Source: Deltaproteobacteria bacterium
GTDB lineage: Bacteria > Desulfobacterota > UBA8473
DNA length: 38,449 nt
Assembly (NCBI GenBank): GCA_003599365.1
Contig: QZJR01000016.1
Location: 1 to 38,449, forward strand
Direction: 5' to 3'
This document shows positions 1,925 to 38,449 of this stretch, one piece after another. The first letter of the stretch is position 1. Each line of letters begins with the position of its first letter. The translations under genes and the position numbers were made by a program. The notes below the pieces were generated by a model. The model was not told the origin of the DNA, did not search any database, and worked only from the letters and a program-made list of their open reading frames with translations.

Positions 1925-1939
1925 AGCAAAGGTTAAATT

Positions 1940-4456: not shown

Positions 4457-4466
4457 TTGGGAAAAG

Positions 4467-4620: not shown

Positions 4621-4688
4621 TAAATCTTAACAATACGGGGAAACAGGATATATGATATATATGTTTAAAACTGCGGGGGTATAGAAAC

Positions 4689-5540: not shown

Positions 5541-6187
5541 TGCTTGAACTGGCTGTTGTTTTTGGGGGGTCTTTTACCCTGGCACTCTCAGGAGCACTCA
5601 TGCCAGGCCCTCTTTTAACAGTAACCATAGCCGAATCGGCGCATCGTGGCTTCGTGGCAGGGCCTTTGCTCATGGTTGGCCATGCGGTTCTCGAACTGGC
5701 CCTGGTGGTGGCTATCATTCTGGGGTTGGGGCCTTTTCTGAAGATACCCCAGGTTATGGGGGGTATTGCCCTGGTTGGCGGAGCCATCCTTATATGGATG
5801 GGTATACAGATGATCCGGACAGCACGAAATATCTCCCTTAATATGGATGGGCCAGAGGGCAGGGTATCTTCTTATCCTGTGCTGACCGGCATTCTGGCCA
5901 GCCTTTCCAACCCTTACTGGATCCTGTGGTGGGCTACTATTGGCCTGGGATATCTGGTTGCCGCCATAAAGCTGGGTGTTCTGGGGGTAGGGGTTTTCTT
6001 TGTGGGTCATATTGCGGCCGATTTCCTCTGGTACAGCATAGTCTCCTATGGTATCAGCCGCGGCAAAAGAATTCTCAAAGACAGAGCTTATCAACATATT
6101 ATCCGTTTCTGCGGCATCTTCCTTTTGGGATTCGGCGGGTGGTTTTTGCTTGCCGGAAGGACTTACCTGGGGAGATGTCCATTATAG
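5537..6187 (+). CDS. LysE/RhtB-family amino-acid or metabolite exporter
   Basis: Six hydrophobic segments and an N-terminal 'LSGALMPGPLLTVTI' motif. ATG overlaps the amidohydrolase stop (ATGA at 5537-5540). Confidence 0.85.
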   Translation: MMLELAVVFGGSFTLALSGALMPGPLLTVTIAESAHRGFVAGPLLMVGHAVLELALVVAIILGLGPFLKIPQVMGGIALVGGAILIWMGIQMIRTARNISLNMDGPEGRVSSYPVLTGILASLSNPYWILWWATIGLGYLVAAIKLGVLGVGVFFVGHIAADFLWYSIVSYGISRGKRILKDRAYQHIIRFCGIFLLGFGGWFLLAGRTYLGRCPL

Positions 6188-13460: not shown

Positions 13461-15197
13461 CTAAACAAACGAATCCATCTGCCACTCACCAAATACGCCT
13501 CTCAAAACATCACACTGTTCTTGAAGGGTAGCGTATTCTCTTGCCAGATTAACAAAAAGAGGCATCAGGTTCTCATCGTCCTTTTTGGCAGCCCTTTCCA
13601 ACTCTCCAAGAAGCCTCGTTACTTCCCGGTTGTTCCTTGTACGTTTGACTTCAGCAAGGTTAGCCTTCTGCTTTTTCTCGGCATCATACCTCTTCTCTTC
13701 AGAATACGGATGCTCAACCATCTTGCTGGTGGTCACATCCAGCTCGTATTCCTCTGTGAAACAGTTCACTCCAACTATGATATCTTCTCTTTTCTCTATC
13801 CTGGACTGACGTTCAGCAGCGCTCTTTGCAATCGAGCGTTGCATATACCCGTTCTCAATAGCAGCCACAGATCCACCTATCCCCTCGACTTTTTCCAGTT
13901 CTTTCCATGCTGCTTCCTCTATTTCATTGGTCAATGACTCTACATAGTAAGACCCGGCCAGAGGATCTAAAACATCGCACATCCCTGTCTCATACATGAG
14001 AATCCTTGTTGCATCCTCTGCAAGCTGCCTTGCTTCCAAACTCCAACCCAATCCCAGCGGCTCATCATACGGCGGGAAGGCCAATGGCGGACCTCCCGAA
14101 AGAACACCGGCTACTGCGCCTATTACTGAGCGGGTAAGATTGTTCAGTGCCCGTTGTTTGGTGGTGGTACTGATACCACTATAGGCTGTGTATTGGCTTC
14201 GGATTCTCATGCTTTCGGATTTCTTTGCACCGAATCTTTCCTTGAGAATCTTAGCCCACATACGGCGAGACGCCCTATGGAAAGCGATCTCCTTGAAAAA
14301 CTCCATACTACCACCAAAACCTACAAAGGAAAACCTGGGGGCAAAGGCATCAATATTGAGTCCTGCATTTATCCCTTCCTGTAAATAAGCAATCCCGTTA
14401 GCCATAGTGAATGCCAATTCCTGCTCTCTTGTGGCTCCTCCCTCACGGATATGAGCACCGCCAAAGCCGTTTATATTCATCGCCGGAAGACTCTCCGTAA
14501 AGAAGACCAGACTGTCTCGAAACATACGCATGGAAGGCCTCGGAGGGAATATGTAGGTGCCGCGGGAAATAAACTCCTTTAGTATGTCATTCTGGGGGGT
14601 ACCCTTCAACTTTGCCAGTGATATACCCCTCTTCTCTGCAAGAGCCACATACATGGCAACCAGGATATTTGCAGGGGCATTTATCGTCATGTTTGTAGCG
14701 ATCTTGTCCAGATCCAGATTGCCTGTAAATGCCTCAAATATAACCTCAAAATCCCGCAAGGTGTCTACTGCCACACCCACCTTACCTATCTCTCCTTCAA
14801 CTATCTCATTATCCGAATCATAGCCGCACTGGGTAGGAAGATCTAACGCCAGGTTGGGCCCGCCTGTATACATTAATTTCGCCATTAATCTGTAGTAATC
14901 CCTGGTGTCTTCCGGGGTTCCATATCCGGAATATGTTCCTGCCCTTCTCAACCCCCCAGGCTTTGCACCTTTTTCAAGTCTTGGTACAAGATTTACCGGA
15001 TAAGAGGCTGCCGTCAATGGATATTGCCCAGGGAAACCCACATCCCGTAAGAAATCAAAGTCCGGTATGTCTAAAGGCGTATGGAATTCTGTCGGCCTTT
15101 TTTCTATACCAAACCTCTTGGCCGCAGGCAACAACGCCTTCTCCTCCCATTCCTCCTTCTTCTCTTTTATCTCAGCCAATTTATCTTTATTATCCAT
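13461..15197 (-). CDS. Acyl-CoA mutase large (catalytic, B12-dependent) subunit, divergent paralog 1 (578 aa, no fused B12 domain)
   Basis: MCM-family core: 'GTPQNDILKEFISRGTYIFPP', 'HIREGGATREQELAF', 'DPLAGSYYVESLT'. The N-terminal signature diverges ('FPGQYPLTAAS' in place of '..TRG'). Confidence 0.9.
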   Translation of the reverse strand: MDNKDKLAEIKEKKEEWEEKALLPAAKRFGIEKRPTEFHTPLDIPDFDFLRDVGFPGQYPLTAASYPVNLVPRLEKGAKPGGLRRAGTYSGYGTPEDTRDYYRLMAKLMYTGGPNLALDLPTQCGYDSDNEIVEGEIGKVGVAVDTLRDFEVIFEAFTGNLDLDKIATNMTINAPANILVAMYVALAEKRGISLAKLKGTPQNDILKEFISRGTYIFPPRPSMRMFRDSLVFFTESLPAMNINGFGGAHIREGGATREQELAFTMANGIAYLQEGINAGLNIDAFAPRFSFVGFGGSMEFFKEIAFHRASRRMWAKILKERFGAKKSESMRIRSQYTAYSGISTTTKQRALNNLTRSVIGAVAGVLSGGPPLAFPPYDEPLGLGWSLEARQLAEDATRILMYETGMCDVLDPLAGSYYVESLTNEIEEAAWKELEKVEGIGGSVAAIENGYMQRSIAKSAAERQSRIEKREDIIVGVNCFTEEYELDVTTSKMVEHPYSEEKRYDAEKKQKANLAEVKRTRNNREVTRLLGELERAAKKDDENLMPLFVNLAREYATLQEQCDVLRGVFGEWQMDSFV

Positions 15198-15252
15198 GAT
15201 AAGTCTACCTCCCTATCTCAGTTGATAAAACATGGTTGTCATTATTCTAAAC

Positions 15253-15380
15253 GTAACTATTCAGGCAGGCACAAAGGCACAGAGCACCAAAGGCACAAAG
15301 TAGGAAAAAACAATGAGACGACCCTGCTCCGCTCTGCTTTGTACCTATGTGCCTTTGCCACTTTGTGCCTGAGTAGTTAC
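15253..15380. mobile_element. 128-bp MITE with terminal inverted repeats and an 8-bp target-site duplication
   Basis: TIRs are 'gtaactattcaggcaggcacaaag' (left) and the reverse complement of the right end, 'gtaactactcaggcacaaag'. Flanking direct repeats are 'ttctaaac' (15245-15252) and 'ttctagac' (15381-15388). The paralogous empty site at 13451-13470 reads 'tgtcattattctaaacaaac'. Confidence 0.7.
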
Positions 15381-15382
15381 TT

Positions 15383-17119
15383 CTAGACAAACGTATCCAA
15401 CTGCCACTCACCAAACACACCTCTTAAAACATCGCATTGCTCTTGAAGGGTCGCATACTCCCTTGCCAGATTAATGAAAAGGGGCATCAGGTTCTCATCT
15501 TCCTTTTTAGCAGCACTCTCCAATTCTTTCAGAAGCCTCGTAACCTCCCGGTTATTCCTTGTCCGCTTCACCTCAGCCAGATTGGCCTTCTGCTTTTTCT
15601 CGGCATCATACCTCTTCTCTTCAGAATACGGATGCTCAATGATCTTACTGGTGGTTACATCGAGCTCATATTCCTCTGTAAAACAATTCACCCCTACAAT
15701 AAGTTCCTCTCTCCTCTCTATCCTGGCCTGACGCTCGGCAGCGCTCCTTGCACATTCGCGCTGCATATACCCGTTTTCTATTGCCGTCACGGCACCCCCT
15801 ATCCCTTCGATCTTCTCCAGCCCTTTCCACGCAGCATCCTCTATTTCGTTGGTCAATGATTCCACATAGTAAGACCCGGCCAGAGGGTCTATAACATCGC
15901 ACATCCCCGTCTCATACATGACAATCCTTGTGGCATCCTCGGCCAGTTGTCTCGCTTCTAAACTCCAGCCCAACCCCAGCGGTTCATCATATGGTGGAAA
16001 TGCCATTGGCGAACCTCCGGAGAGAACTCCAGCTATTGCCCCTACCACAGAACGGGAAAGGTTGTTCAGCGCCCGCTGCTTGGTGGTGCTGCTGCAACCA
16101 ATATGAGCTGAGAGAGGACACCGGATCCTCATACTATCCTGCTTCTTTGCACCGAACCTTTCTTTAAGAATCTTTGCCCACATACGGCGAGCTGCCCTCT
16201 GAAAGGCTACCTCCTTAAAAAGCTGCATGCTCCCCCCAAACCCATTGAAGGTAAACTTGGGGGCAAAGGCGTCAATATCGACCCCTGCATTCACACCCTC
16301 CTGCAAATAGGCAATCCCTATGGCCATACTAAAGGCCAGCTCCTGTTCCCGAGTAGCTCCCCCTTCACGAATATGATACCCACCGATACTGGTTATGTTT
16401 ACCCCTGGAAGATTCTCAGTAAAGAAGACCACGCTGTCTCGAAACATCCGCATAGAAGGTCTCGGAGGAAATATGTAGGTGCCCCTGGAAACAAACTCTT
16501 TTAGTATGTCATTCTGGGGTGTACACCTTAGTTTTGCCATGTTTATGCCCCTCTTTTCAGCCAGGGCTATGTACATGGCAACCAGGATATTTGCAGCGGC
16601 ACTGATGGTTATGTTCGTGGCTATCCTGTCCAGATCCTGCTCTCCTGTAAATGCCTCATAAATAACCTCAAAATCCCGCAAGGTATCTATCGCGACCCCC
16701 ACCTTGCCTACTTCCCCTTCGACCGTCTCATTATCCGAATCATAACCGCACTGGGTAGGGAGATCTAATGCCAGGTTGGGACCGCCTGTATACATTATCT
16801 TCGCCATCTGCTTATAGTAATCCCTGGTATCTTCCGGAGTGCCATAGCCGGAATATGTCCCTGCCCTTTTCAACCCCCCAGGCTTTGCACCCTTTTCAAT
16901 CCGAGGCACAAGACTTATTGGATAAGCTGATGGGGTAAACGGATATTGCCCCGGAAAACCAACATCACGCTCAAAGTCAAAATCCGCTATATCCAAAGGC
17001 GTATAGAATTCCGTCGGACTTTTCTCTATACCGAACCTCTTGGCTGAGGGCATCAATACCTTCTCTTCCCATTCCTTCCTCTTCTCTTTTATCTCACTCA
17101 ATTTATCTTTATTATCCAT
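15383..17119 (-). CDS. Acyl-CoA mutase large subunit, divergent paralog 2 (578 aa), tandem duplicate of 13461-15197
   Basis: Collinear with paralog 1 with no indels (constant 1922-nt offset), roughly 80-85% aa identity by eye. 'CTPQNDILKEFVSRGTYIFPP' and 'GGYHIREGGAT'. Confidence 0.9.
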   Translation of the reverse strand: MDNKDKLSEIKEKRKEWEEKVLMPSAKRFGIEKSPTEFYTPLDIADFDFERDVGFPGQYPFTPSAYPISLVPRIEKGAKPGGLKRAGTYSGYGTPEDTRDYYKQMAKIMYTGGPNLALDLPTQCGYDSDNETVEGEVGKVGVAIDTLRDFEVIYEAFTGEQDLDRIATNITISAAANILVAMYIALAEKRGINMAKLRCTPQNDILKEFVSRGTYIFPPRPSMRMFRDSVVFFTENLPGVNITSIGGYHIREGGATREQELAFSMAIGIAYLQEGVNAGVDIDAFAPKFTFNGFGGSMQLFKEVAFQRAARRMWAKILKERFGAKKQDSMRIRCPLSAHIGCSSTTKQRALNNLSRSVVGAIAGVLSGGSPMAFPPYDEPLGLGWSLEARQLAEDATRIVMYETGMCDVIDPLAGSYYVESLTNEIEDAAWKGLEKIEGIGGAVTAIENGYMQRECARSAAERQARIERREELIVGVNCFTEEYELDVTTSKIIEHPYSEEKRYDAEKKQKANLAEVKRTRNNREVTRLLKELESAAKKEDENLMPLFINLAREYATLQEQCDVLRGVFGEWQLDTFV

Positions 17120-17167
17120 GATACCTTTACCTCCCCCTAAACCTGAAATATTTCCAGCCAGAACTTT

Positions 17168-17575
17168 TCAGGCTATTTTACGTACGTTTTTCCTTATAAA
17201 GTCCCCAATATCCTTTATCAGAGTACCAGGACCAAAGATTTCTGTGACACCTTTCTCTTTGAGTATTGGGATATGCTCGTCAGGTATAATGCCACCACCT
17301 ATAACCAACATATCTCCAGCGTCATTTTCCCTCAAAAGATTCACAACCTTGGGGAAGAATGTCAGATGGGCTCCGGATAGGATGCTAAGCCCCACAACAT
17401 CCACATCCTCTTGCAGTGCTGAGTTTACAATCTGTTCGGCTGACTGTCTCCTTCCGGTATAGATTACTTCCATACCCTGGTCTCTCAGCCCGAAGGAGAG
17501 AACCTTTGCGCCTCTATCATGTCCGTCAAGCCCGGGCTTTGCTATTAATACCTTTATCTTTCTTTCTTTTTCCAT
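17168..17575 (-). CDS. Stand-alone B12-binding (cobalamin) small subunit of an acyl-CoA mutase
   Basis: '[18 protein letters not shown]' (DxHxxG), 'GLSILSG' (SxL), 'IGGGIIP' (GG). ATG at 17575 has SD 'aaggagg'. The track's TTG at 17614 would overlap the upstream gene. Confidence 0.9.
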
Positions 17576-17588
17576 AAAAAACACCTCC

Positions 17589-19544
17589 TTAATCATAGAT
17601 AGTCTGACATTCAAGTATCTCCACCGGTACCTCGGTTTCTCTTTCTATCTCCATATATACCCTTCCTGTCAGGTCCCTTCCCCACCCACTTAGATTGAAG
17701 GGCGAAGATGGGATTACGACCAAATCCGGTTTTACATCCGTTGATTTAATATAATCTTTTATATAGTTAATATAATCCTGGACTACTAATAAATCCCCCA
17801 TACAGATATTACCCCCAAAAAATCGGTTTGGAGGAACAGCAACCTTTATATCAATGTTCCTTCCTCTAAAGAAAGGGGATTCCAGCATGACCTTTTCCAG
17901 CAATGGCTTAATAAGGATTGACGTAAGGAAGAGGATGTTTTTGGCACCTTTCTTTTCGATAAGGTATTCTAATGACTCCAGGTAACCTCCCCGAAGACCT
18001 GTGCCCATAAATATTATCCCGAGATGGGTGTCGATATCCCTCGAATATGGGTATGAAGTCTTGTTTAAATTGAGTAAGAGATCCAATGTACAACCCTTCC
18101 TCAAGACCTCTATTGCCACAGATTCCATCTCATTCTTTTGTAAAATGGAGAGGAGGGTTCGGGCCTGAGGTCTATTGTGGATCACATTGCTCCCTATCTT
18201 CGTCAATATATCGCCTCTTCGCAAACCACTGTTAGCCACCGGAGAGCCTTTCACTATTCCGATAATTTCCGGCAGGTTCTTCCGGTTACAGAACAGCCCC
18301 TCTTCATACATAGCAGGCCTGATTACTATGGGAATCCCGTATTTACTCCTTATATCCCTTACCTTCCTGGCAATCGCCTCCCAGATGGAATCATGGTCGA
18401 ACAGATCATCTTCTGAAAAGTACTTAGAGTACCCCGGTAAGCTGATTTCTGCGAGATGGGCGTCATTTTCATCAGCATACTCAATCGTTCTCTCCATGTC
18501 ATCCAGCATCTCCTCCGGAGATCCGTCAGGCCATGGCACAATGACTGTGTTGTAAGGAATACCGGCTTTCCTGAGTAAAGGCAGAGATTTGATAGCTATC
18601 TCCGGGGTTTTGTCATGCATTAACCTCTGCCTCCTATGAGTTGAAGAACTATGCAGGGCAACATCCAGGTGCAATGGATTAAACCCCAAAAGGTAATCAA
18701 TCATCTCCTCTGTCAGAGTCGAACCATTTGTAGTTATTCTTATAAGTTTATCGCTCTTCTTCCGAACTTCCTGTAGTACCTCTCTGAAATGGGGATGAAT
18801 GAATGCCTCAAAGCTGCTCCCCAGACTTGTGAATAAGTTCTTCTTTTTTTCAGGATAAAAGTATTTCAGGCGGGTCTGTACCTCTTTGAACTCTTCGTCA
18901 GGAGACTTAGAAGGGTTCGTAAGTGCCAGAGATGGGGGACATCCTTTGTTATAACAAAAAACACAGTTGCAGTTGCATCTTGTTGCCAGATATCCCAACA
19001 TATCAGCGGGATCACAGGAAGACTCTTCAACCCATTGGGACAAGTCTTTAAGCCTGAAGGCATCGACTTTCACTGTCTTTCCATGACTTTCCAGCTCCAC
19101 CAAATCCAACAAACTCTGTAGTAGTCGTTGAATATACTCGACAGTCGGTTCATAAAGGGAGGTATTTCTTATAGATTGGAAACCGCACCCCCATGCGTCC
19201 CCATTTTCTTCTTCGAGAGATTTGCCGTTGTCTCCGTCCGGATATCTGATGGTTTCCGTTGGCATAAGGTTTCCCCGGCGTTCGCTATCCGATTCGACAG
19301 GGCACCCTTCATCCCCATCGAATACCCTGTGTATACGACTCCTGTCGTTCATCAATTTGAATCCGTCAATCCTTACCTCAGAATCTCCGTTACAGGGGAT
19401 TGCTATATCGAGGATATTCCTCAAATGCATTCTCAAAAGATCTAATCGAGAGGCACAGCGCTTATCCTCTCTATTGGTGCCATCAGACATTTTATATCGA
19501 AAGACATAATCATTGTCTGAAGATGCTGTTTCTTCCCTTTTCAT
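17589..19544 (-). CDS. Radical SAM protein with an internal PDZ-like domain, a DUF512-like C-terminus and an unassigned ~175-190-aa N-terminal region
   Basis: 'CNCNCVFC' is CxxxCxxC. The PDZ-like stretch is '[21 protein letters not shown]'. The C-terminus '[28 protein letters not shown]' resembles DUF512. ATG at 19544 has SD 'aggag', whereas the GTG at 19595 has none. Confidence 0.8.
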
Positions 19545-19602
19545 TTTGACTCCTGAATTCTGTCTCCTGTCTCCTGAACAGTTAGAAATCACCACGATTA
19601 TT

Positions 19603-24017: not shown

Positions 24018-24422
24018 TTACAGACCTGCATGTTGTACTGTTTCATTTATACATCTGATGATACTTTGAAGACGGGATCCAGGCCCGAATATTTCCACGA
24101 CTCCCATTTCTCTTAATTTAGGTTTTTCTTTGGGTGTGATGATCCCTCCCACCAAGATAGGAATATTATCGCCTCCTTGTTCACTCAAGGCTGACTTTAC
24201 TTTCGAAAAAAGCGTTACTGCTCCACCTGCATGAATGCTCAGTCCGATAATATCCGCTCCTTCTTCGACTGCCGCCTGAGCGATTTCATTTGGGGTCAAA
24301 TCGACTCCTAGATAAACAACTTCCATCCCTGCATCCATCAAGGCTTTTGCCAAAACGTTTATCCCTCTCAGGTGACCATCTAAGCCAGGTTTTGCCAAAA
24401 GAATCCTGATATTTTTTTTCAT
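24018..24422 (-). CDS. Stand-alone B12-binding small subunit of an acyl-CoA mutase
   Basis: '[18 protein letters not shown]' (DxHxxG), 'GLSIHAGG', 'LVGGIITP'. Lies directly downstream of the 553-aa large subunit. Confidence 0.9.
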   Translation of the reverse strand: MKKNIRILLAKPGLDGHLRGINVLAKALMDAGMEVVYLGVDLTPNEIAQAAVEEGADIIGLSIHAGGAVTLFSKVKSALSEQGGDNIPILVGGIITPKEKPKLREMGVVEIFGPGSRLQSIIRCINETVQHAGL

Positions 24423-24470: not shown

Positions 24471-26132
24471 TCAAACCGTTACATTGGCTCCTCTCTCCCA
24501 AGCCCGTCGAACCTCCCCAAGAGTTGCCAATGCTTTATAGGCTTCCACCATTGATCTCATGGTATTCATGCCCTTTTCAGTAATATGAGTTATCTCGTTC
24601 AATGCCCTCTCAACCGATTTTTGGTCTCTTTTTCTTTTAATCTCGGATAGAAACGCAATCTGTTTCTCTTCAAAATCTGGATCTATTTCAAAGAGGTTTA
24701 ATTCCTGATCTTCTTGCTCGTCAAGGGTAAACGCGTTAAGCCCGACAACAACCTGTTTGTTGTTTTCTATCCTTTTTTGTTTTTCATATGCTGCTGATAG
24801 ATAGCTGTCCTGTATCCATTTCCAAGCCTTAACCGCGCCTCCTCTTTTATCCACCTGTTCTATAATTTCAAAGGATTTTCTTTCCAACTCATCAGTGAAT
24901 GCCTCAATACAATAAGACCCCCCCAGGGGATCTACCGTATTGGCAACACCACTTTCATGAGCTATGATTTGCTGAGTTCGCAGAGCGATCAAAGCAGCTT
25001 CGGGAGTTGGGGCAGCAAACGCTTCGTCATAGGAATTAGTATGTAGAGAATTGCAACCTCCTAACACTGCGGCAAGGGCCTGTATGGTGGTTCTTATTAT
25101 GTTGTTCAATGGTTGTTGTGCCAACAAGGAATTGCCGGCTGTCTGAACGTGATACCGCAGAAGCAAACTCCTCTCTTCTTTCGCATGAAATCTGTTCTTC
25201 ATTATTTTAGCCCAGACTCTCCTCGCTGCCCTGAATTTGGCCACTTCTTCCAGGAAATCCGTCTCACAACTAAAAAAGAAACTCAACCTTGGGGCAAATG
25301 AGTCGACATCCATACCCCTTTCAATGAAATCTTCGACATAGGCAATCCCGTCAGCAAGGGTAAACCCGATTTCTTGTGCTGCTGTGGCACCTCCTTCTCG
25401 AATATGATAGCCAACAATACTCAATGGATTCCATAACGGTAAATATCTCGTAGCGAACTCTACAGCATCACCGTGTACTTTCATTCTTAAAGGCAATGGA
25501 GCCATCCTAAACCAATTACACGAGTGAGAATTGTTGATACAATCGTTTTGGATCGTTCCTTTTAATTTGTGGAGTTGGACACCCCGATTCTCCGCCATAG
25601 CAATGTACATAGGAAATAAAAAGGGATGCGGAGCAATAAGGCTCACAGAAACCTTCTCTATGTCAATTTCATCAAACAGATCTTCCATATCTATTAAAGT
25701 ATCGATAGCCGTTCCGTTGATTCCTACCTGGCTCTGCGAGATATCTTCGTCTGAATCTCTGACATTCAAAGTGGGAGGATCGAAAACCGGATTTAACCCT
25801 GTCTCCCCATGAGCGAGAAGGTTCTTCAATATCTTATTCGATTCCTTGCCACCCATTGCCCCTGAAACAAGACGATGAGTCCAGAGTTGTCCGCGATAGC
25901 CGGTAGGCCTTATCCCTCGCGTAAAGGGATATTGACCGGGGAAATTCAGGTCATCCAGATACTCAATATTCTTGATATCTTCCGGGGTATAAACCCTGCT
26001 TACATTGTTTATTGATGAAGTTGAGAATTCACTTTCTCGCTCCCCCATTTTTTCAAGAATAGGGTTTACACATTTTTTCTCCCAGTTGATTTTTTCTTCT
26101 TCTATACGTTTTATATCCAGTTCGCCGCCCAA
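24471..26132 (-). CDS. Acyl-CoA mutase large subunit, paralog 3 (553 aa)
   Basis: 'FPGQYPFTRGIRPTGY', 'GTIQND', 'GYHIREGGATAAQEIGFTLADG', 'HVQTAGNSLLAQQPLNN', 'LHTNSYDEA', 'DPLGGSYCIE'. TTG start with SD 'aaggag' at 6-nt spacing. Confidence 0.9.
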   Translation of the reverse strand: MGGELDIKRIEEEKINWEKKCVNPILEKMGERESEFSTSSINNVSRVYTPEDIKNIEYLDDLNFPGQYPFTRGIRPTGYRGQLWTHRLVSGAMGGKESNKILKNLLAHGETGLNPVFDPPTLNVRDSDEDISQSQVGINGTAIDTLIDMEDLFDEIDIEKVSVSLIAPHPFLFPMYIAMAENRGVQLHKLKGTIQNDCINNSHSCNWFRMAPLPLRMKVHGDAVEFATRYLPLWNPLSIVGYHIREGGATAAQEIGFTLADGIAYVEDFIERGMDVDSFAPRLSFFFSCETDFLEEVAKFRAARRVWAKIMKNRFHAKEERSLLLRYHVQTAGNSLLAQQPLNNIIRTTIQALAAVLGGCNSLHTNSYDEAFAAPTPEAALIALRTQQIIAHESGVANTVDPLGGSYCIEAFTDELERKSFEIIEQVDKRGGAVKAWKWIQDSYLSAAYEKQKRIENNKQVVVGLNAFTLDEQEDQELNLFEIDPDFEEKQIAFLSEIKRKRDQKSVERALNEITHITEKGMNTMRSMVEAYKALATLGEVRRAWERGANVTV

Positions 26133-30831: not shown

Positions 30832-32337
30832 CTACTGTATGATGTCCTCCTTTGCAGCATTTTCCCCGGCAATGCGTCCAAAGGCAATACATTCGGCGAG
30901 ATTGCTTCCTGCTGAGGGGTAAAGCATACCGTAGATGGAGCCGAATTCTCCGGCGGCGTATAAACGTGGGATTGGATCACCATTCACATTTAATACTTGG
31001 GCCCGGTGATTGCGCTTCGGCCCACCCTGGGTATTGGGGCCCCCTGGAAGGAGTTTTACGCCATAGAAAGGTGGTTTGATTAGGGGTACCAGGTCTTGCT
31101 GTTGGCGGTCGAACTCAGGATCACTTCCCTGGGCACAGTAGCGCTCATAGCCCCTCGCTGTTTGTTCAAGATTGTCGGGGTCCACCCCTATTTTATGAGC
31201 AAGCTCTCTTATGGAACCGGCCTGGATTATCCACCCGCGCTCTATCTCCTTGCTGTTGTCTCTGCTCCATCGGTATAGTCTTACCGGCCCGCTGGCACCT
31301 GTAATTTGTAATGCCAAAGGACCCGAATCCATTCGATTCTGGTCAAAAATCCAGAAGCATGGCACCCTGGGATAGATAAGACGCTGGCTATCAAAAAGTG
31401 TTAGTTCGTAGTACAGGGTATGGTATTTAAAGTTCTCGTTAGTGAACCTTTTACCGTTACGATCCACAAAGAAGAAGCCGCAGGGTTTCGATGGGGCTTT
31501 TCCCATCACCTTGTGCAATACAGAGTTGCAGCCGCGATGGTCAAAATCAAAAGCAATTGGGAAGTCCGGGAATTTACCAACCAGTCTGGCAGAACAGCAG
31601 TTCATATGCCATAGATCGGCGCCGAGTTCCATCACCATACGATGACCATCACCTGTATTAGCCGGTGAACCATAAAAGTGGGTGGGATAGACCTTGAGGT
31701 AATTCAGCTTCATCTCCTCGTTAAACTCAAAGCCGCCACAGGTCATTATCACTGCCCGGCGCGCCCGTATGTTCACTCTATGTCTGCGTTCTTCTTCGCC
31801 TGTTTCTACTCTGACCCCTACAACTTCTCCTTTCAGGCTGGTAATAAGTCTGATCGCAGGGCTATCGTACATTATTCTAATCTCACGATGGGTTACCTGC
31901 CTTTCAAGGAACTTCGCAAACCCTGTTCCAAATCCTGGATACCTACAGATGTCCATGCATTCAGCACCTTCAACTTGGTGCTCCCCGAAAGGGCCGATGA
32001 ACCTGGGTTTGCCTCCCAGATTTTCAATCCATTCCCTGTTTTGTGATGCATATTCAGCCCAGGCCTTTATCACGTCCGTATCCGTCCAACTGACACCACG
32101 TTCTATCTGGCAAAGGGATTGAAGATACTTGATTCCTTTTTCAACATTGTTTACATTGACAAATATGCCGCCGGACATCTTGGTGTTGGTGCAGTGGGTG
32201 TCTTCAGGCTGTTTTTCCAGGATGAGAACCACTGCCCCTTTATCGTGAGCGGTTATGGCAGCCACCGCTCCGGCGCCGCCGTAACCCACAATCACCACAT
32301 CAGCCTCTTTGTCCCAATCTTCCTTTTCAGTAAGCAT
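30832..32337 (-). CDS. FAD-dependent oxidoreductase (FAD_binding_2; 3-ketosteroid-dehydrogenase / fumarate-reductase flavoprotein-like)
   Basis: 'DVVIVGYGGAGAVAA' dinucleotide fold and C-terminal 'RLYAAGEFGSIYG..GSNLAECIAFGRIAG'. ATG at 32337 follows SD 'aaggag'. The track's GTG at 32439 is unsupported. Confidence 0.85.
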   Translation of the reverse strand: MLTEKEDWDKEADVVIVGYGGAGAVAAITAHDKGAVVLILEKQPEDTHCTNTKMSGGIFVNVNNVEKGIKYLQSLCQIERGVSWTDTDVIKAWAEYASQNREWIENLGGKPRFIGPFGEHQVEGAECMDICRYPGFGTGFAKFLERQVTHREIRIMYDSPAIRLITSLKGEVVGVRVETGEEERRHRVNIRARRAVIMTCGGFEFNEEMKLNYLKVYPTHFYGSPANTGDGHRMVMELGADLWHMNCCSARLVGKFPDFPIAFDFDHRGCNSVLHKVMGKAPSKPCGFFFVDRNGKRFTNENFKYHTLYYELTLFDSQRLIYPRVPCFWIFDQNRMDSGPLALQITGASGPVRLYRWSRDNSKEIERGWIIQAGSIRELAHKIGVDPDNLEQTARGYERYCAQGSDPEFDRQQQDLVPLIKPPFYGVKLLPGGPNTQGGPKRNHRAQVLNVNGDPIPRLYAAGEFGSIYGMLYPSAGSNLAECIAFGRIAGENAAKEDIIQ

Positions 32338-32486
32338 TGCATCTCCTTTTGCTGTAACCTCCAATCCTTTTGAGACTGATGGAAAAATCATCTTTCTCTC
32401 TTCCAAAATGTATCTTTTGCAAACTCCTAATTGGTTCACACTGAAAAATTCCCTTTTCCGCTCTCTGGTTCAGGTTTTTTGAGTAT

Positions 32487-34499
32487 CTATATACTTATGG
32501 CAAGTTCAGCCCCTTCTCTTATGGCCCACATAACATCCCTCGGCTCTACACAATCTCCGATTTCATAGACCTCCGGCACCAAGCCTTTCAATTTTGTGCT
32601 CAACTCTTTCTCCGGTTTAACACCCACAGCCAGTACCACTGAATCAGCCTCTAAAAATACAAGATCGTTATTGAAAACAACGTAAATCCCATCGGTCATT
32701 ATCTCTATAACCGGACAATTTTGGTAAAGATAAACCCCTTTCCTAATCAATCGATTACGCAACGTCAGGTAAGTGTTCCGCTCTATATCTCTACCGAGGG
32801 TCCTTCGGGTTACGAGGCTTACCTTTTTCCCTTCTCCTGCAAGCTGATCGGCAATCTCCATACCCAGGTACCGTCCACCGATTACGACTGCCCGGTTACC
32901 AGTCTTCACTTTACCTAGAATCACATCATTGGCTTGAACCACATTCTTATTATCTATACCCTTTATATCCAAAATGGCAGGGCTCGCCCCCGTTGCGATA
33001 ACTACTATGTTCGGCTTTTCGCGTTTAACCAGCCCAGGAGTTACTCTCGTTCCAAGGTGAACTTTTACACCGGCTTTATCCAAACCCCTTTTCAAATAGT
33101 AAAGCACCTTGGGATAATCGTGCCTTTTTTGTGTCTGCTGGGACGCCACGTACCACTGCCCTCCCAATTCTTTGTCCTGTTCGTAAAGTGTAACTCGATG
33201 GCCCCTTTCTTGAAGAGTCCGCGCCGCTTCCATGCCGGCAGGACCACCACCAACTACCATTATCTTTTTAGGCAATGAGGTAGGCACAATGACAAATTCT
33301 TTTTCCCGCATAAGGGTTGGGTTAACAGAGCAATGAAGTCCTTCTCTCAAGATATTGGGATGATCCTTGAAATTGAAGCAATTCAAACAATAAATACAAG
33401 CACGAATATCATCAAAACGCCCTTCTTTGGCCTTATTGGACCATTCCGGGTCTGCCAACAATGCCCTCCCTAACGCAACGAAATCCGCTTTACCTTGAGC
33501 CAATACTTCCTCGGCAAACGTAGGATCGACAATCTTTCCTACAGCAATCACCGGTACCTTGACCACCTTTTTTATTGCTTCCGCCAAATGTACCAGAGGT
33601 CCCTGCTGAAAAAGAAAACTGGGATATTGCCAATCGATAGATCCCTGTTCGCTGGCAGATACGTCCAGGGCATCGGCACCAGCTTCAACGAAAAGAGGCG
33701 CTTGTCGGGTAGAATCGTCTATATTGATACCTCCGGGCATAAAATCACTTCCGCTAAATCTAAAAATAACGGGAAAGTCCAAGCCCACTTTCTGTTTCAC
33801 GGCATCAATGATCTCGCAGGCAAAAAGGGCCCTCTTTTCTACGCTCCCTCCGTATTCATCGGTTCTTTGGTTGGCCAATGGAGAGAGGAACTGACTTATG
33901 AGATACCCGTGACCACCGTGGATCTCTACCGCATCAAACCCAGCATCCTTAACCCTTCTCGCTGCTTCCGCAAAAGCTTTGATAATACGCTTTATGTCCT
34001 CCCCGGTGGCTTCTTCAGGCGGAATGTTTCCCCGCACCCAGATGGAGAGATCCTGCTCTTCTTTCGCCCCGGGAATCTCCAACACCCTGAGCAGCCTGGG
34101 AATAGGTGATGGGCCGAGAATCCTTAATTCCTCTGGACGGTCCACCATGTGTTGATAATCGGTCAGTAACCTTCCGTGATGGACAAGTTGAAATGCTGCC
34201 TGACCGCCGTTTTTATGAATCGCATTCGCCACTCGCTGCAGACCGGGGATAAATTTGTCATCATAGATCGACGGTCGATGGGGAGCGCGGCTTTCTCTCA
34301 TAATAATGCTGGACTGACAAATAATAAACCCCACTCCACCTTTAGCCCGCTCAGCATAGTAGTTTACTGTCCGATCAGTGATTTCTCCTTCCGGACTATG
34401 GGCGACAGTACCCATGGGCGACATGACAATACGATTCTTTACCTCCATCTTACCGATATTCCCAGGTCGGAACAGATTTATCAATTTCGATCTATACAT
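32487..34499 (-). CDS. OYE-domain / Fe-S / FAD-NAD(P) three-domain oxidoreductase (2,4-dienoyl-CoA reductase FadH / BaiH-like)
   Basis: 'NRIVMSPMGT', 'HGGHGYLISQFLSPLANQRTDEYGGS', Cys cluster 'CIYCLNCF..HCSVNP', and a second Rossmann motif 'MVVGGGPAGMEAA'. Confidence 0.9.
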   Translation of the reverse strand: MYRSKLINLFRPGNIGKMEVKNRIVMSPMGTVAHSPEGEITDRTVNYYAERAKGGVGFIICQSSIIMRESRAPHRPSIYDDKFIPGLQRVANAIHKNGGQAAFQLVHHGRLLTDYQHMVDRPEELRILGPSPIPRLLRVLEIPGAKEEQDLSIWVRGNIPPEEATGEDIKRIIKAFAEAARRVKDAGFDAVEIHGGHGYLISQFLSPLANQRTDEYGGSVEKRALFACEIIDAVKQKVGLDFPVIFRFSGSDFMPGGINIDDSTRQAPLFVEAGADALDVSASEQGSIDWQYPSFLFQQGPLVHLAEAIKKVVKVPVIAVGKIVDPTFAEEVLAQGKADFVALGRALLADPEWSNKAKEGRFDDIRACIYCLNCFNFKDHPNILREGLHCSVNPTLMREKEFVIVPTSLPKKIMVVGGGPAGMEAARTLQERGHRVTLYEQDKELGGQWYVASQQTQKRHDYPKVLYYLKRGLDKAGVKVHLGTRVTPGLVKREKPNIVVIATGASPAILDIKGIDNKNVVQANDVILGKVKTGNRAVVIGGRYLGMEIADQLAGEGKKVSLVTRRTLGRDIERNTYLTLRNRLIRKGVYLYQNCPVIEIMTDGIYVVFNNDLVFLEADSVVLAVGVKPEKELSTKLKGLVPEVYEIGDCVEPRDVMWAIREGAELAISI

Positions 34500-34591: not shown

Positions 34592-34999
34592 TTACCCTGA
34601 TGTCCCAGCATCAAAATGACTTCTAACATAGTCCACTATATCTGAAATCTTTGTTCCGGGAGTGAATATCCCTTCTATTCCAATCCCTTTCAATGTGGGT
34701 ACAATTGGCGGGGGGATGATCCCGCCAACAATGATCTGAATATCCCGGATTGATCTCTCCTTGAGCAGCTCTACCAATCTCGGCACAAGAATTTCAGGAG
34801 CGCCATCCATAATTCGGTAGCCTATGAAGTCTACATCCTCCTGAACGGCAGATTTCACTATCTGAGGGGGAATCTGGAACCCCCCAAGTATTACCTCTAT
34901 ACCTGCCTCCCTCAACCCCTTTCCCACTACATAGTAACCGGTAGCATGCCCCGGACTGTCAGAAACCAGCAACACTCTGATCTTTTTATTAAGTTCCAA
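34592..34999 (-). CDS. Divergent stand-alone B12-binding-domain protein (small-subunit paralog lacking the Asp of DxHxxG)
   Basis: 'RVLLVSDSPGHATGYYV' aligns to '[13 protein letters not shown]', so His and Gly are kept and Asp becomes Pro. SxL is 'GYRIMDG', and the GG motif is 'IVGGIIPP'. TTG start with SD 'ggagg'. Confidence 0.8.
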   Translation of the reverse strand: MELNKKIRVLLVSDSPGHATGYYVVGKGLREAGIEVILGGFQIPPQIVKSAVQEDVDFIGYRIMDGAPEILVPRLVELLKERSIRDIQIIVGGIIPPPIVPTLKGIGIEGIFTPGTKISDIVDYVRSHFDAGTSG

Positions 35000-35015
35000 T
35001 CTCCACCTCCAAGTT

Positions 35016-35086
35016 TAGACTATAGACTATTAGCCTGTAGACTATTAGCCTACTTCAGCCTACAGCCTAAACACCTGAGTAGTTAC
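35016..35086. repeat. Tandem 'tagactattagcct' repeats ending in the 'cctgagtagttac' terminus shared with the MITE
   Basis: Copies lie at 35023-35036 and 35038-35051. The block is 24/28 identical to the reverse complement of hairpin 6227-6254. 'cctgagtagttac' occurs at 35074-35086 and also at 15368-15380. Confidence 0.55.
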
Positions 35087-36753
35087 ATACCGAAGTAGCA
35101 TCCCCATACATGGCTTAGATCTGCCGGGCCATAAACCTTTTCTCTTATCTCAACAATCTCTCCGATGCTCAGATATGCCTTAACAGCCTCTACCATAGGT
35201 CCTATTATATTTATTCTATTCCTGTACGCATCTTCCAGCAGCTTCTTCGCTTTCTCTGCTTTTCCAGGGTCTCTTTTCTTCTTAACTCTATCGAGCCTTT
35301 CTATCTGTTTGTCTCTCCAGACAGGATCGTATCCCAGAATATCCGTATTACCGAGATCAATCCCCCCTTCACCCTCTCTCACAACAAATCTATTAACACC
35401 CACCATAGCCCTTTCGTTATTGTCTATGGCCTTTTGCCTGAGATATCCGGACTCTTTGCCCTGATCAACAATATACTTATATGCCTTCCGGGGCTCCATA
35501 TCCTCTAATTCTTTCAGTGTCTCTAATGCCTTTTGTTCAAGTTGATTGGTAAGAGACTCTATGCAATATGAACCCCCTAAAGGATCGATAACGTTTGCTA
35601 CACCGCTTTCATGGCCAATTATCTGTTGGGTACGCAGTGATAAGGTAGCTGAAGCCCTGGTTGGTATGGCTAATGCCTCGTCAAAGGAGTTTACAGACAT
35701 TGACTGAGCACCCCCCAGCACAGCAGCAAGGGCGTGGATGGTAGAGCGGATTACGTTATTAAGGGGCTGCTGGGCTGTCAGGTTAATTGCTGTGGTCTGG
35801 GTATGGAATCGCATAAGCCATGATCTGGGATCCCTGGCATTGAACCTTTCTTTAACTGTCCTTGCCCATAACCTGCGCATTGCGCGGAATTTGGCTACCT
35901 CTTCCAGGAAGTCATTCTCAGAGCTGAGAAAAAAGGAGATCCTTGGGGCAACTTCATCAACATCTATGTTCCTTGCGATTACGGATTGCAGGGTAAAACC
36001 TCCCATGTAGACCCCAAAAGCAATTTCCTGAGGGGCAGATATGCCTTCATCCCTGATATTCCTCACAGAGATACTGGTATGGTTCCATCGCGGCAGATTC
36101 TTTGTGCAATACTCACTGATATCCACCGAACCATTCCCCCTCATTTGCGGGCCTTCGCCAAAAGGGAAAACACAGTTCTGAATAGTTCCGGACAGATTCT
36201 TAAAATCTATACCCTGCCTTTCGGCTTCTGCCAGAATCATGGCAAAGACAGGTATGGAAAAGCCAATCTGGTTGATGCTGATCTCAGACATATCTATCCC
36301 GTCAAACAGGGTTTCAATGTCTGCCAGGGTATCAATCCATACCCCGCCCTTTCCCAGAATACCAAAACTCCGTTCATCACCGGACTCATAGGGCTGGTAG
36401 CCCATTCCGCAGACACTGAATCCGGTCTGCCCTTGTTTAAATAGATATTTCAGCCTCTCGTTGGTCTCCTCAGCAGTCCCCAATCCTACTACCTGTCTTA
36501 TAGTCCATTCTTTTGTCCTATAACCTGTTGGCGTGACCCCCCTGGTAAAGGGATACGAACCGGGGGAAGAAATATCTTCAACATAGTTATTGTCTTTAAT
36601 ATCAAGAGGGGTGTAAATCGGTTTTAAGGGGAGCCCTGAAAGGGTTGTCATCTCTTTCTCTTCTATTGAAAATTTCTTTAAGACTTCTTTAACACTGGCT
36701 TCATATCCCTTGTTCAATTGCTCAATCTCTTTCAATATCTCTTCTTTAAACAA
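35083..36753 (-). CDS. Acyl-CoA mutase large subunit, paralog 4 (556 aa), with the most divergent active-site motifs
   Basis: 'SPGSYPFTRGVTPTGY', 'HTQTTAINLTAQQPLNN', 'DPLGGSYCIESLT'. However, it has 'GTIQNCVFPFGEG' and 'VRNIRDEGISAPQEIAF' in place of the QNDILKE and GYH..EAGA motifs. TTG start with SD 'ggagg'. Confidence 0.88.
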   Translation of the reverse strand: MFKEEILKEIEQLNKGYEASVKEVLKKFSIEEKEMTTLSGLPLKPIYTPLDIKDNNYVEDISSPGSYPFTRGVTPTGYRTKEWTIRQVVGLGTAEETNERLKYLFKQGQTGFSVCGMGYQPYESGDERSFGILGKGGVWIDTLADIETLFDGIDMSEISINQIGFSIPVFAMILAEAERQGIDFKNLSGTIQNCVFPFGEGPQMRGNGSVDISEYCTKNLPRWNHTSISVRNIRDEGISAPQEIAFGVYMGGFTLQSVIARNIDVDEVAPRISFFLSSENDFLEEVAKFRAMRRLWARTVKERFNARDPRSWLMRFHTQTTAINLTAQQPLNNVIRSTIHALAAVLGGAQSMSVNSFDEALAIPTRASATLSLRTQQIIGHESGVANVIDPLGGSYCIESLTNQLEQKALETLKELEDMEPRKAYKYIVDQGKESGYLRQKAIDNNERAMVGVNRFVVREGEGGIDLGNTDILGYDPVWRDKQIERLDRVKKKRDPGKAEKAKKLLEDAYRNRINIIGPMVEAVKAYLSIGEIVEIREKVYGPADLSHVWGCYFGM

Positions 36754-36789
36754 TTTCTACCTCCAAATTTAAGTTTCCCGGGAAGGTTA

Positions 36790-38094
36790 CTACTTCATCA
36801 ATCTCGGCAGCCACAATGCAAGTTCAGGGAAAACAACAAACAATGCCAGAACGGCAAACTCCAGGAGCACGTAGGGCATAGTCCCACTTATGATTTCTTC
36901 CATCGTCACGTCATCGGCTATAGACTTCATGGTATATAGATTTAGACCGACAGGCGGAGTAATAACGGCCATTTCCAGGTTCATCACCAGTATGATACCA
37001 TACCATAAAGGGTCAAAGCCAAGAGCAATTACTGTAGGAAGAAAGATAGGGGTGGTTACCAATACTATTGATGCCCCATCAATGAAACAACCCATAAATA
37101 CCAGGACCAGCATAAAGAACATAATGACAAGGAAGGGGGATAGACCCAACGAAACAGAGAATTCTGCCAACCGATCAGGTACCCTGGTATAAAGCAAAAA
37201 CTGTCCAAAGGCAAAGGCGCATGCAGCAATGAGTATAACGGCGCCCACAATTCGGGCGGTGTTGCCAAATATCTTCTTAAGAGCCTCCCGGTTTAAAGAC
37301 CTGTATACGAAAGCCCCAATCAAAAGGGCAACTGCGGCCCCAATAGCCCCTGCTTCAGTCGGCGTACAGATACCGGTATAGATGCTGACCATTACCGCAA
37401 CGATGAGTACAAGCGCCGTCCATAACCTCTTAAGAGATGAAAATTTCTCCCTCCACGTTATCCTATCCTCACTCCTCACAGCAAGGGCAGGGTTTCTAAA
37501 CGCCTTAACAAAAACGTAACCTGCCATTGCTAGAGCAAGAAACACCCCTGGTACTATTCCGCCAATAAAGAGTTTTCCTACCGATACCCCGGATACCGCG
37601 CCATAAAGGATGAACGGCAGACTCGGAGGGATAAGCATTGCCAGAGCGCCAGCGGCTGTAATTGACCCTACGGCAAGTTTCTTATCGTACCCGTGCCTTA
37701 ACATCTCTGGCAGAGCCATCACACCAATAACGGCAACCCCTATTATGCTTACCCCACACATAGCCCCGAATATGGCGCAGGCAAATATACTTGCAACAGC
37801 AAGCCCACCAGGGAGGCGGTAAAACCATTTGTGTAATGCAAAATACAAATCTCTGCCAATTCCTGTCTGAGCAATTGTTTCCCCCATTATGATATAGAGG
37901 GGGGCAGCTACCAAAACAGGATTGTTAAGCTGAGACATGATTGATAACGGCACCTGGGTTAAGCCTATAACCCCCCGGCTCAAGAAGATGCCAACAGCGC
38001 CTGCAATACCCAGAGATGCAAAAATGGGACACTTGAACGCTATCAAAACAAAAATAATCAGAAATGTTATTGCTATAACCAATTCAGGAGCCAT
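36790..38094 (-). CDS. dctM: TRAP transporter large permease subunit
   Basis: ~434 aa, highly hydrophobic, DctM-like. ATG at 38094 follows SD 'gaggagg' and overlaps the DctQ stop by 11 nt. Confidence 0.9.
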   Translation of the reverse strand: MAPELVIAITFLIIFVLIAFKCPIFASLGIAGAVGIFLSRGVIGLTQVPLSIMSQLNNPVLVAAPLYIIMGETIAQTGIGRDLYFALHKWFYRLPGGLAVASIFACAIFGAMCGVSIIGVAVIGVMALPEMLRHGYDKKLAVGSITAAGALAMLIPPSLPFILYGAVSGVSVGKLFIGGIVPGVFLALAMAGYVFVKAFRNPALAVRSEDRITWREKFSSLKRLWTALVLIVAVMVSIYTGICTPTEAGAIGAAVALLIGAFVYRSLNREALKKIFGNTARIVGAVILIAACAFAFGQFLLYTRVPDRLAEFSVSLGLSPFLVIMFFMLVLVFMGCFIDGASIVLVTTPIFLPTVIALGFDPLWYGIILVMNLEMAVITPPVGLNLYTMKSIADDVTMEEIISGTMPYVLLEFAVLALFVVFPELALWLPRLMK

Positions 38095-38449
38095 GTTTAT
38101 CCTCCTCTCTAGCCTCAATTATATGCAACAGATACTCCAGTCCGACAAACAGAGAACCCAGGGGGATGACTATATAAATAACCCACAACGGCATGCGAAA
38201 TTCACCGGCCATGTACATGCCATATTTATATGTTGAAAGAGCGGCCTTGCTTCCCATCCAGACCAGGACGGCACAAAACAGGATGACCAGCACAGAATCA
38301 AACACATCAACACGTCTCTGATTTCTTCTCGACAGACGCGACACCAACATACCCATGTCAATATGCTGCCCCCTTCTAACCAGCTCGGCAGCACAAATAA
38401 ACCCCATATATACCAATAAAACGGCATTCAGTTCGATAGCCCAACTAGT
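38084..38449 (-). CDS. dctQ: TRAP transporter small permease subunit (5'-partial; frame stays open to the window edge)
   Basis: Hand translation upstream of the track's TTG stays open (..TSWAIELNAVLLVYMGF..). DctQ-like 'GQHIDMGMLVSRL', directly upstream of dctM. Confidence 0.8.
   Translation of the reverse strand, partial: TSWAIELNAVLLVYMGFICAAELVRRGQHIDMGMLVSRLSRRNQRRVDVFDSVLVILFCAVLVWMGSKAALSTYKYGMYMAGEFRMPLWVIYIVIPLGSLFVGLEYLLHIIEAREEDKHGS

Follow-up and report, generated by a model that had tools for sequence, protein, structure and literature searches.

The stretch of DNA analysed here, contig QZJR01000016.1 of a Deltaproteobacteria bacterium (38,449 nucleotides; "the window" below), carries two adjacent minus-strand genes for the large, substrate-barrel subunit and the small, B12-binding-domain subunit of a member of the acyl-CoA mutase family. 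In both subunits, residues that are hallmarks of catalysis and cofactor binding are replaced. We refer to the two genes as the Arg-Asn pair, after the residues that stand in place of Tyr243-His244 in the large subunit. The pair and its immediate upstream surroundings are laid out as follows.

36790-38118, minus strand: DctM subunit of a tripartite ATP-independent periplasmic (TRAP) transporter (PF06808, E 7.8e-91)
36754-36789, minus strand: gap of 36 nt between dctM and the large-subunit gene (read from the sequence)
35083-36753, minus strand: large (substrate-barrel) subunit, Arg-Asn type, 556 amino acids (open reading frame, PF01642, TIGR00641)
35000-35082, minus strand: spacer of 83 nt between the two genes of the pair (read from the sequence)
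34592-34999, minus strand: small (B12-binding-domain) subunit, 135 amino acids (open reading frame, PF02310, TIGR00640)

The dctM gene lies directly upstream of the large-subunit gene and in the same orientation; the DctQ gene further upstream is truncated by the end of the window. No convincing promoter- or terminator-like site is present in the 36-nt gap, which is consistent with co-transcription of the pair with the TRAP transporter genes. Both genes of the pair start with TTG, preceded by a GGAGG that ends 6 nt before it, in agreement with the good Shine-Dalgarno sequences reported by the initial annotation of this DNA. The start sites also agree with the N-termini of homologues, which share the same first residues (MFKEE.. 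and ME.NK..). The 83-nt spacer is rich in short repeats ('taggct', 'aatagtcta'), and the Shine-Dalgarno sequence of the small subunit lies at its end.

Both subunits pass curated family cut-offs, and the pair is thus a member of the acyl-CoA mutase superfamily. The large subunit matches PF01642 with 485.9 bits (E 1.7e-145, cut-off 22.1) and TIGR00641 with 458.9 bits (cut-off 303.8). The small subunit scores 99.4 bits against TIGR00640 (cut-off 57.45) and 42.7 bits against PF02310 (cut-off 32.1), where its paralogues in the window reach about 79. No equivalog model of NCBIfam is reached by the pair.

In canonical mutases, His244 acts as the general acid at the thioester carbonyl, Tyr89 and Tyr243 lie at the substrate and the adenosine, and Arg207 clamps the carboxylate. 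Positions 89 and 207 form a specificity pair, which is Tyr/Arg in methylmalonyl-CoA mutase (MCM), Phe/Gln in isobutyryl-CoA mutase (ICM) and Ile/Gln in 2-hydroxyisobutyryl-CoA mutase (HCM). That Tyr89 and His244 have been studied as catalytic residues is apparent from the PDB titles 'Y89F mutant' and 'H244A mutant'. Substitutions in the two subunits were mapped by HMMER alignments to solved structures (4R3U, 2XIJ, 6OXC, 5REQ and 2YXB) and to the paralogues in the window. Residue numbers of the canonical enzyme are those of Propionibacterium shermanii MutB, taken from the alignment to 5REQ (Y89F), in which the printed chain index is one below the usual numbering. The changes from MutB to the window protein are these.

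Tyr89 to Val88
Phe117 to Gly116, with Asp118-Leu119 deleted
His122 to Tyr119
Asp199 to Cys194
Arg207 lost in a deletion of about 8 residues, which shortens the 197-215 loop
Tyr243-His244 to Arg231-Asn232
Gln246 to Arg234
Glu247 to Asp235 (acidic residue kept)

Landmarks of the large subunit are CGMGY115-119, the shortened Arg207 loop QNCVFPFGEGPQMRGNG192-208, His225, His317/Gln319 and NSFDEAL355-361. The alignments to structures and paralogues thus bear out the initial annotation, according to which the Tyr-His dyad and the QNDILKE loop are replaced. They also confirm that the CoA-proximal motifs remain (FTRG, TGY, QQPLNN and DPLGGSYCIE). The CoA-tunnel residues Thr85, Arg87, Ser114, Gln197-Asn198, His328 and Gln330 are all kept. 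At positions that contact the cofactor in MCM, the protein retains Ser114, Gln197/Asn198, His328/Gln330, NSFDEAL (Asn366..Glu370) and an acidic residue at 247. The Tyr243-His244 dyad of a canonical mutase is absent not only from the window protein but also from its 120 best homologues, all of which read S[VA]R[ND] at this place (120/120). Likewise, there is no 89/207 specificity pair on a full-length 197-215 loop: position 89 is Val88 and residue 207 is deleted.

The small subunit was aligned to the solved B12 subunits 2YXB, 4R3U_C and 8DPB_C. The canonical relay under the cobalt consists of His610-Asp608-Lys604. In the window protein, 'GLDGHDRG' has become 'DS-PGHATG', which is one residue shorter, and 'GLSIL' has become 'GYRIM', while 'VGGII' and 'PGT' are retained. 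Its landmarks are Asp14 (four residues before the His, or His-4), Pro16 (at the position of the canonical Asp), His18, Gly21 and Tyr22, followed by GYRIMD60-65 (at the position of SxL), GG92-93 and PGT114-116. These alignments reproduce the earlier claims that the lower-ligand His and the Gly are kept and that the Ser of SxL is Arg: a DxHxxG motif is not found, as His18 and Gly21 are accompanied by Pro at His-2 and Asp at His-4, and SxL reads R-I-M within GYRIMD, alongside the GG of VGGII and the PGT.

These motifs were compared across 112 related small subunits. The His, the Gly at His+3 and a Tyr at His+4 occur in 112/112, Asp at His-4 in 111/112, and GYRIMD is near-universal. The residue at His-2 is Pro in 54, Ser in 14, Leu in 12 and Ala in 8, then Phe, Tyr, Ile or Lys, but never Asp or Glu. 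None of these 112 sequences thus has a canonical D-x-H. The statement that the Asp is replaced by Pro holds for the window gene but not as a trait of the family, since His-2 is variable. Judged from the alignment, the family trait is a one-residue-shorter loop with Asp at His-4, and since this Asp coincides with the one-residue deletion, the Asp-His partnership may be relocated rather than lost.

DxHxxG has been described as the single motif common to B12 methyltransferases and isomerases (PMC3727330). The lower-ligand pocket of MCM is hydrophobic (PMC6759758); the matching segments of the window protein carry Tyr22, Tyr61, Arg62, Met64 and Asp65. This suggests that the nucleotide tail is held differently or that another cobamide is bound. 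Against a simple switch of the cell's cobamide speaks the presence, in the same island of genes, of two small subunits in which DxHxxG and SxL are canonical.

The changes in the two subunits go together. In every locus where both genes can be read side by side, a barrel of the S[VA]R[ND] type adjoins a small subunit of the GH[ST][TA]GY / GYRI[MCST]D type, and canonical barrels (QNDILKE, RQYAG) in the same loci adjoin small subunits with DGHDRG and GLSIL. This upholds the proposal that the changes co-vary in both partners, and both map to one branch of the tree (see below). As to the narrower question of whether Asp-to-Pro co-occurs with Tyr-His-to-Arg-Asn in homologues, the two subunit types always pair, but the Pro itself varies. 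Natural fusions of 674 amino acids, with the B12 domain N-terminal to the barrel, confirm the partnership. On the most economical reading, the large and small subunits are obligate partners. The order of domains in the fusions is that of IcmF (4XC6) and the reverse of that in MCM. In contrast to IcmF, however, no G-protein (MeaI) domain separates the two parts of the fusions; IcmF also keeps canonical His-ligand and catalytic motifs, and its sequence match to the window large subunit is comparatively weak (E 5e-41, residues 211-535).

The best 120 homologues of the large subunit, 55-93% identical to the window protein, come from at least 8 phyla and all from uncultured sources. Their metagenome-assembled genomes (MAGs) are labelled Thermodesulfobacteriota, Rokubacteria, NC10/Methylomirabilia, Binatia, Nitrospinae and Spirochaetota, among others. 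Besides S[VA]R[ND], all 120 share GMGY, a Val, Met, Leu or Ile at the Tyr89 position and a short QNx..P.GEG..RGN loop. Among 15 diverse members, the clade-specific residues Gly116-Met117-Gly118-Tyr119, Trp139, Cys216, His225, Arg231, Arg234 and His340 are invariant and Asn232 nearly so. The large-subunit gene is under purifying selection, with dN/dS values of 0.08-0.17 against four orthologues. Conserved clade-wide, the motif pattern is far beyond chance. By this comparison of sequences, the motif changes are a trait of the whole clade, neither decay nor a one-off.

Trees were built with FastTree (138 rows) and IQ-TREE (53 rows, SH-aLRT). In both, the window clade, a sister clade and protein P0245 ('SRC') form a single branch with a support of 100; a single ancestor therefore accounts for both the Arg at 243 and the small subunit of YRIMD type. 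The sister clade (L117, L118, L121, L124-L126 and L134; representative P0243) has 'LDMRNVREGG', 'GSMSNW' and 'HIRQVTG' in its barrel, and 'DDWYHQRGY' together with 'GYRIMD' in its small subunit. In a library clustered at 50% identity, the window clade collapses to one full-length representative, P0002. Patterns specific to the small subunit of the clade were used to scan 185,579 species genomes and returned 51 loci, all in MAGs and none from isolates. A large-subunit pattern, GxGTAEETN, is not clade-specific and hits canonical mutases as well; among the matches listed, only L007 is a true relative. Database names for the clade proteins are generic ('methylmalonyl-CoA mutase family protein' or 'cobalamin-dependent protein'), and a full-text literature search found no description of a mutase clade without His244 or the DxH Asp.

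The fold was predicted with AlphaFold2 for P0119, a natural fusion that belongs to the clade but is not the window protein (mean pLDDT 81.9, pTM 0.74). The model carries no ligand or cofactor, and the alignment used for folding comprised fusions and large subunits only, so that for the B12 domain it was shallow. The model has a TIM-barrel and a flavodoxin-like B12-domain fold. The barrel superimposes on HCM (4R3U_A/B) with template modelling (TM) scores of 0.83-0.84. Its matches to HCM and to active MCM alpha chains have E-values of 1e-36 to 1e-41, compared with about 1e-18 for inactive beta chains. The B12 domain lies within 1.7-2.3 A rmsd of solved B12 subunits, with TM scores of 0.84-0.90 to 2YXB and 4R3U_C/D.

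The closest known system is HcmAB of Aquincola tertiaricarbonis (4R3U), which likewise has separate large barrel and small B12 subunits. It is the best match of the large subunit by sequence (E 5e-111, residues 5-551) and of the P0119 model by fold (38% identity at the TM scores given above). Like the window protein, it has a residue other than Tyr at the Tyr89 position and 'HxQTxA' where MCM has 'HxQTSGW'. Unlike the window pair, HcmAB keeps Gly-Tyr-His, the full QxDILKE..Arg207-region loop, FD(M), DGHDRG and GVSLL. MCM alpha chains (1REQ MutB, 2XIJ MMUT, 6OXC) share with the window pair the barrel and B12-domain fold, the His, GG and PGT, as well as Thr85, Arg87, Ser114, Gln197, His328, Gln330 and NSFDEAL. 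Tyr89, Phe117-Leu119, His122, Arg207, Tyr243 and His244 of MCM are replaced or deleted in the window large subunit, and the Asp608-Lys604 relay and Ser655/Leu657 are absent from the small one. The domains of MCM are, moreover, found on two polypeptides in the window. Alignments show that Tyr243-His244 and DxHxxG/SxL are kept in HCM and in the MCMs of human, Mycobacterium tuberculosis and P. shermanii. To our knowledge, the remaining characterised types of acyl-CoA mutase keep them too, and all characterised members have their catalytic residues and their His-Asp ligation of the cobalt in common while covering only a handful of reactions.

On these sequence grounds, the pair represents a distinct, deep-branching and uncharacterised 'Arg-Asn / YRIMD' subfamily of the acyl-CoA mutase superfamily. 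We favour, with moderate confidence, the view that it is a functional cobamide-dependent enzyme with a new substrate or a new chemistry. Since the CoA-tunnel motifs are kept, the barrel most likely still threads an acyl-CoA along its axis. The small subunit most likely holds a cobamide in the base-off state with His18 on the cobalt, because the His, the Gly at His+3, GG and PGT are retained. The parts that serve thioester-carbonyl migration (His244, Tyr243, Tyr89 and the Arg207 clamp) are replaced by an invariant set: Arg231, Asn232 and Arg234 on an Arg-Asn-x-Arg strand, together with Tyr119, Trp139 and His225. Similarly, the place of the His-Asp-Lys relay is taken by the Asp at His-4 and the Tyr at His+4, and by a Tyr-Arg-x-Met-Asp stretch in the pocket of the lower ligand. 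As the carbonyl-migration and carboxylate-binding residues have given way to a new invariant set, the reaction would be a cobamide-dependent, presumably radical, rearrangement of a CoA ester unlike those of MCM, ICM, HCM, ethylmalonyl-CoA mutase (ECM) and pivalyl-CoA mutase (PCM) in substrate, in migrating group or in both. Asn232 may polarise the thioester, and the new arginines may provide a site for an anionic or polar group. Together with the TRAP transporter and the CoA-transferases, these two arginines hint weakly at an acyl-CoA substrate that is polar or bears a carboxylate. In the window organism, this would be a carboxylate imported by the adjacent TRAP transporter and activated with CoA by the ligase or the CoA-transferase of the island.

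Several findings weigh against a functional cobamide enzyme of this kind. The small subunit lacks the DxHxxG Asp, both the Ser and the Leu of SxL, and the Lys that completes the His-Asp-Lys triad, and in canonical enzymes mutation of the DxHxxG Asp or His cripples catalysis or the binding of adenosylcobalamin (AdoCbl). On the barrel, contacts to the upper face of the corrin and to the adenosine are altered (Tyr89, Phe117, Leu119, His122 and the Val206-Arg207 loop). A tblastn search with the MeaB protein of L087 as query detected no gene for this chaperone beside an Arg-Asn pair in 57 related loci; matches were present in three of the 57, each beside a canonical or 'AYD' pair (see below). The same search detected no MeaB homologue in the 38-kb window, despite its three mutase modules. 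HCM-type mutases have been expressed together with their native MeaB chaperone (PMC11599936). Finally, gene neighbourhoods are too varied to name the substrate.

Some of these findings would fit a protein that has lost the cobamide altogether and become a B12-independent CoA-ester isomerase, epimerase or lyase working through acid-base chemistry of Arg, Asn, His or Cys, with the small subunit kept for structure or for another ligand. Three of the five classical elements of the B12-domain motif are changed (Asp, Ser, Leu), bulky or charged Tyr, Arg and Asp stand where the MCM pocket is hydrophobic (PMC6759758), the upper-face contacts are remodelled, MeaB is not adjacent and the PF02310 score is low beside that of the paralogues. 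Yet a His in all 112 small subunits, together with the Gly at His+3, GG and PGT, is hard to explain without a role as cobalt ligand. In addition, NSFDEAL, HxQT and the acidic residue at 247 are kept on the corrin-facing side of the barrel, and the small subunit still passes the curated thresholds of both its families. Loss of the cobamide is thus improbable, though of the alternatives it survives best.

A non-catalytic pair was one of three options offered by the initial annotation, beside an altered cofactor mode and a different radical chemistry, and it is now disfavoured. In such a case the pair would be a structural or regulatory partner, similar to MutA, of a canonical mutase such as that of module 1 or 2 in the window. 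His244, Tyr243, Tyr89, Arg207 and the DxHxxG Asp are indeed absent; the window holds two more mutase modules, and L087 and L088 each have a canonical pair a few genes from the Arg-Asn pair. The MutA beta chain (1REQ_B, 6OXC_B) is itself a mutase paralogue without catalytic residues; it is not known to bind either CoA or B12, and its His-ligand motif is lost. In contrast, the Arg-Asn pair keeps the cobalt-ligand His, GG and PGT, and its replaced positions are strictly conserved, clade-specific polar residues, unlike those of a relaxed site. The low dN/dS agrees with this conservation of the active site. MutA is also a poor match, with E 1e-21 by sequence to the window protein and about 1e-18 by fold to the P0119 model, which matches active alpha chains some 20 orders of magnitude better in E-value than beta chains. 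Furthermore, the pair has its own 1:1 arrangement of large and small genes, fusions exist, and in L001, L003 and L004 it is the only mutase within the flanks of 8-10 kb read on each side. We therefore hold a non-catalytic role to be unlikely.

A third alternative, which appears distinctly doubtful, is that a cobamide is bound but no adenosyl radical is formed. The pair would then carry out Co(I)- or methyl-type chemistry or a reductive reaction on CoA esters, or would act as a sensor of cobamide or acyl-CoA. Loss of the Asp-Lys relay would be expected to alter the His-on/His-off and redox behaviour of the cobalt, a G-protein chaperone of the sort used by canonical AdoCbl mutases is not adjacent, and genes for redox flavoproteins come after the pair both in the window and in L001. 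These flavoprotein neighbours, however, are not conserved across loci, the pair lacks a methyltransferase, activase or DNA-binding domain, and the barrel, the CoA tunnel and contacts in the Glu370 region that are typical of AdoCbl mutases are kept. Least likely of all, in our opinion, is an ordinary activity of the MCM, ICM, HCM, ECM or PCM type exerted through unusual residues: membership in PF01642 and TIGR00641, HCM as best solved relative and a gene context of acyl-CoA metabolism would agree with it, but the HCM and the three MCMs aligned retain Tyr243-His244 and DxHxxG/SxL, the clade is a separate branch with a support of 100, no NCBIfam equivalog is reached, and the island already has two mutase modules with these very motifs.

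The Arg-Asn / YRIMD clade might even stand for a new class of cobamide enzymes, with a rewired lower-ligand network (the His with its Asp relocated, and a nucleotide pocket lined by Tyr, Arg and Asp), an Arg-Asn-Arg active site, a B12 reaction on CoA esters outside the known set and no G-protein chaperone. We put this forward tentatively. An example of such a reaction would be a new shift of carbon skeleton or functional group by which anoxic subsurface bacteria unblock the beta-oxidation of branched, dicarboxylic or hydroxy acids. Characterisation of one member would reveal either radical B12 chemistry without the Asp-His relay and His244, or a scaffold that has taken on another chemistry. 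Genes from groundwater, coal, tar and seep communities, in which recalcitrant carboxylic acids are degraded, would thereby gain an assigned function as well.

The pair is part of a long minus-strand catabolic island carried by the window. Besides the mutase subunits, the island encodes enoyl-CoA hydratase-family proteins, flavoproteins and transporters, as well as a family-III CoA-transferase, an acyl-CoA ligase, a GntR regulator and a PrpD/MmgE protein. L088 and L089, which are close relatives, have the gene order DctP (three to four copies), DctQ, DctM, large subunit, small subunit. After the small subunit, L087 and L088 have a universal stress protein (USP) gene, a GntR gene and, a few genes on, a canonical mutase pair; this canonical pair comes after PrpD and ligase genes in L088 and before them in L087. 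In the window and in L104, genes for an Old Yellow Enzyme (OYE)/FadH-like protein (32487-34499 in the window) and a FAD_binding_2 protein (30832-32439) lie between the small subunit of the pair and the USP and GntR genes. Both are missing at that place in L087 and L088 and thus look like a recent, optional insertion. Flavoproteins were considered as general partners of the pair and rejected, since they were seen in the window and L001 without being conserved across loci.

Neighbour families were tallied by Pfam for 130 flanking open reading frames from about 40 loci. The commonest are family-III CoA-transferase and acyl-CoA dehydrogenase (4 each), AMP-ligase and short-chain dehydrogenase/reductase (3 each). 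Further families are acetyl-CoA hydrolase/transferase, luciferase-like and metallo-beta-lactamase-fold proteins (3 each), and HpaB/AbfD-like proteins, 3HCDH and thiolase (2 each). The neighbours are thus mainly acyl-CoA enzymes, and CoA-transferases or ligases are found near the pair in about 10 of the roughly 40 loci. A CoA-transferase directly follows the pair in several Chloroflexota/Dehalococcoidia loci. Neither this tally nor synteny maps brought out a partner gene conserved across loci. No riboswitch or other Rfam family reaches its gathering threshold in the 38-kb window. In L003 (1-1574), a fragment of a CobA/BtuR-type corrinoid adenosyltransferase gene and a CbiA gene lie on the opposite strand about 6.5-8 kb upstream of the Arg-Asn pair; this arrangement was seen once and may be coincidental.

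Including the pair, the island holds four PF01642 barrel genes and three PF02310 B12-domain genes, grouped into three mutase modules as follows.

13461-15197, minus strand: PF01642 barrel (module 1)
15383-17119, minus strand: PF01642 barrel (module 1)
17168-17614, minus strand: PF02310 B12 domain (module 1)
24018-24422, minus strand: PF02310 B12 domain (module 2)
24471-26132, minus strand: PF01642 barrel (module 2)
34592-34999, minus strand: PF02310 B12 domain (the Arg-Asn pair, module 3)
35083-36753, minus strand: PF01642 barrel (the Arg-Asn pair, module 3)

Modules 1 and 2 keep Tyr243-His244, DxHxxG and SxL. Module 1 (13461-19595) combines its one B12 subunit with two tandem barrel paralogues of 578 amino acids, one with 'GGYH' (15383-17119) and the other with 'GGAH' (13461-15197). 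In both of these barrels, FPGQYP[FL]T is followed by an insert of about 13 residues and the WTIRQY motif is absent; a radical-SAM/PDZ gene (17589-19595) lies directly upstream. Possibly, module 1 encodes a heteromeric mutase, one partner of which resembles an inactive subunit. The barrel of module 2 keeps Gly-Tyr-His and has Val at the Tyr89 position (THRLVSG), and its Arg207 loop is replaced by the Cys/Asn-rich QNDCINNSHSCNWFRMAPLPLRM. These two features suggest a specificity unlike those of MCM, ICM and HCM.

Deviations at position 244 extend beyond the Arg-Asn clade. The 'AYD' barrels of L002 (3010-6125) and L136 (about 1-5643) have Asp in place of His244 and lie beside a B12 subunit and a MeaB gene. 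By sequence, they are at least one further lineage without His244 and, unlike the Arg-Asn type, travel with the chaperone. The superfamily is very large: in the library clustered at 50% identity, 16,285 representatives are matched at E<=1e-3, of which 1,575 remain at E<=1e-30. Among the 150 nearest of them (P0241-P0389), many have states other than GYH at positions 242-244 (AYN, xYD, GHC, GQH, GSH and others). Diversity is thus much greater in the uncharacterised part of the mutase family than among the enzymes studied. This wider diversity at 243/244 tempers the uniqueness of the Arg-Asn clade but not its reality, and the clade is one clear entry point. As to the habitat of the window organism, no RNA run contains the window stretch, and DNA runs in which it was found come from groundwater, subsurface and coal metagenomes.

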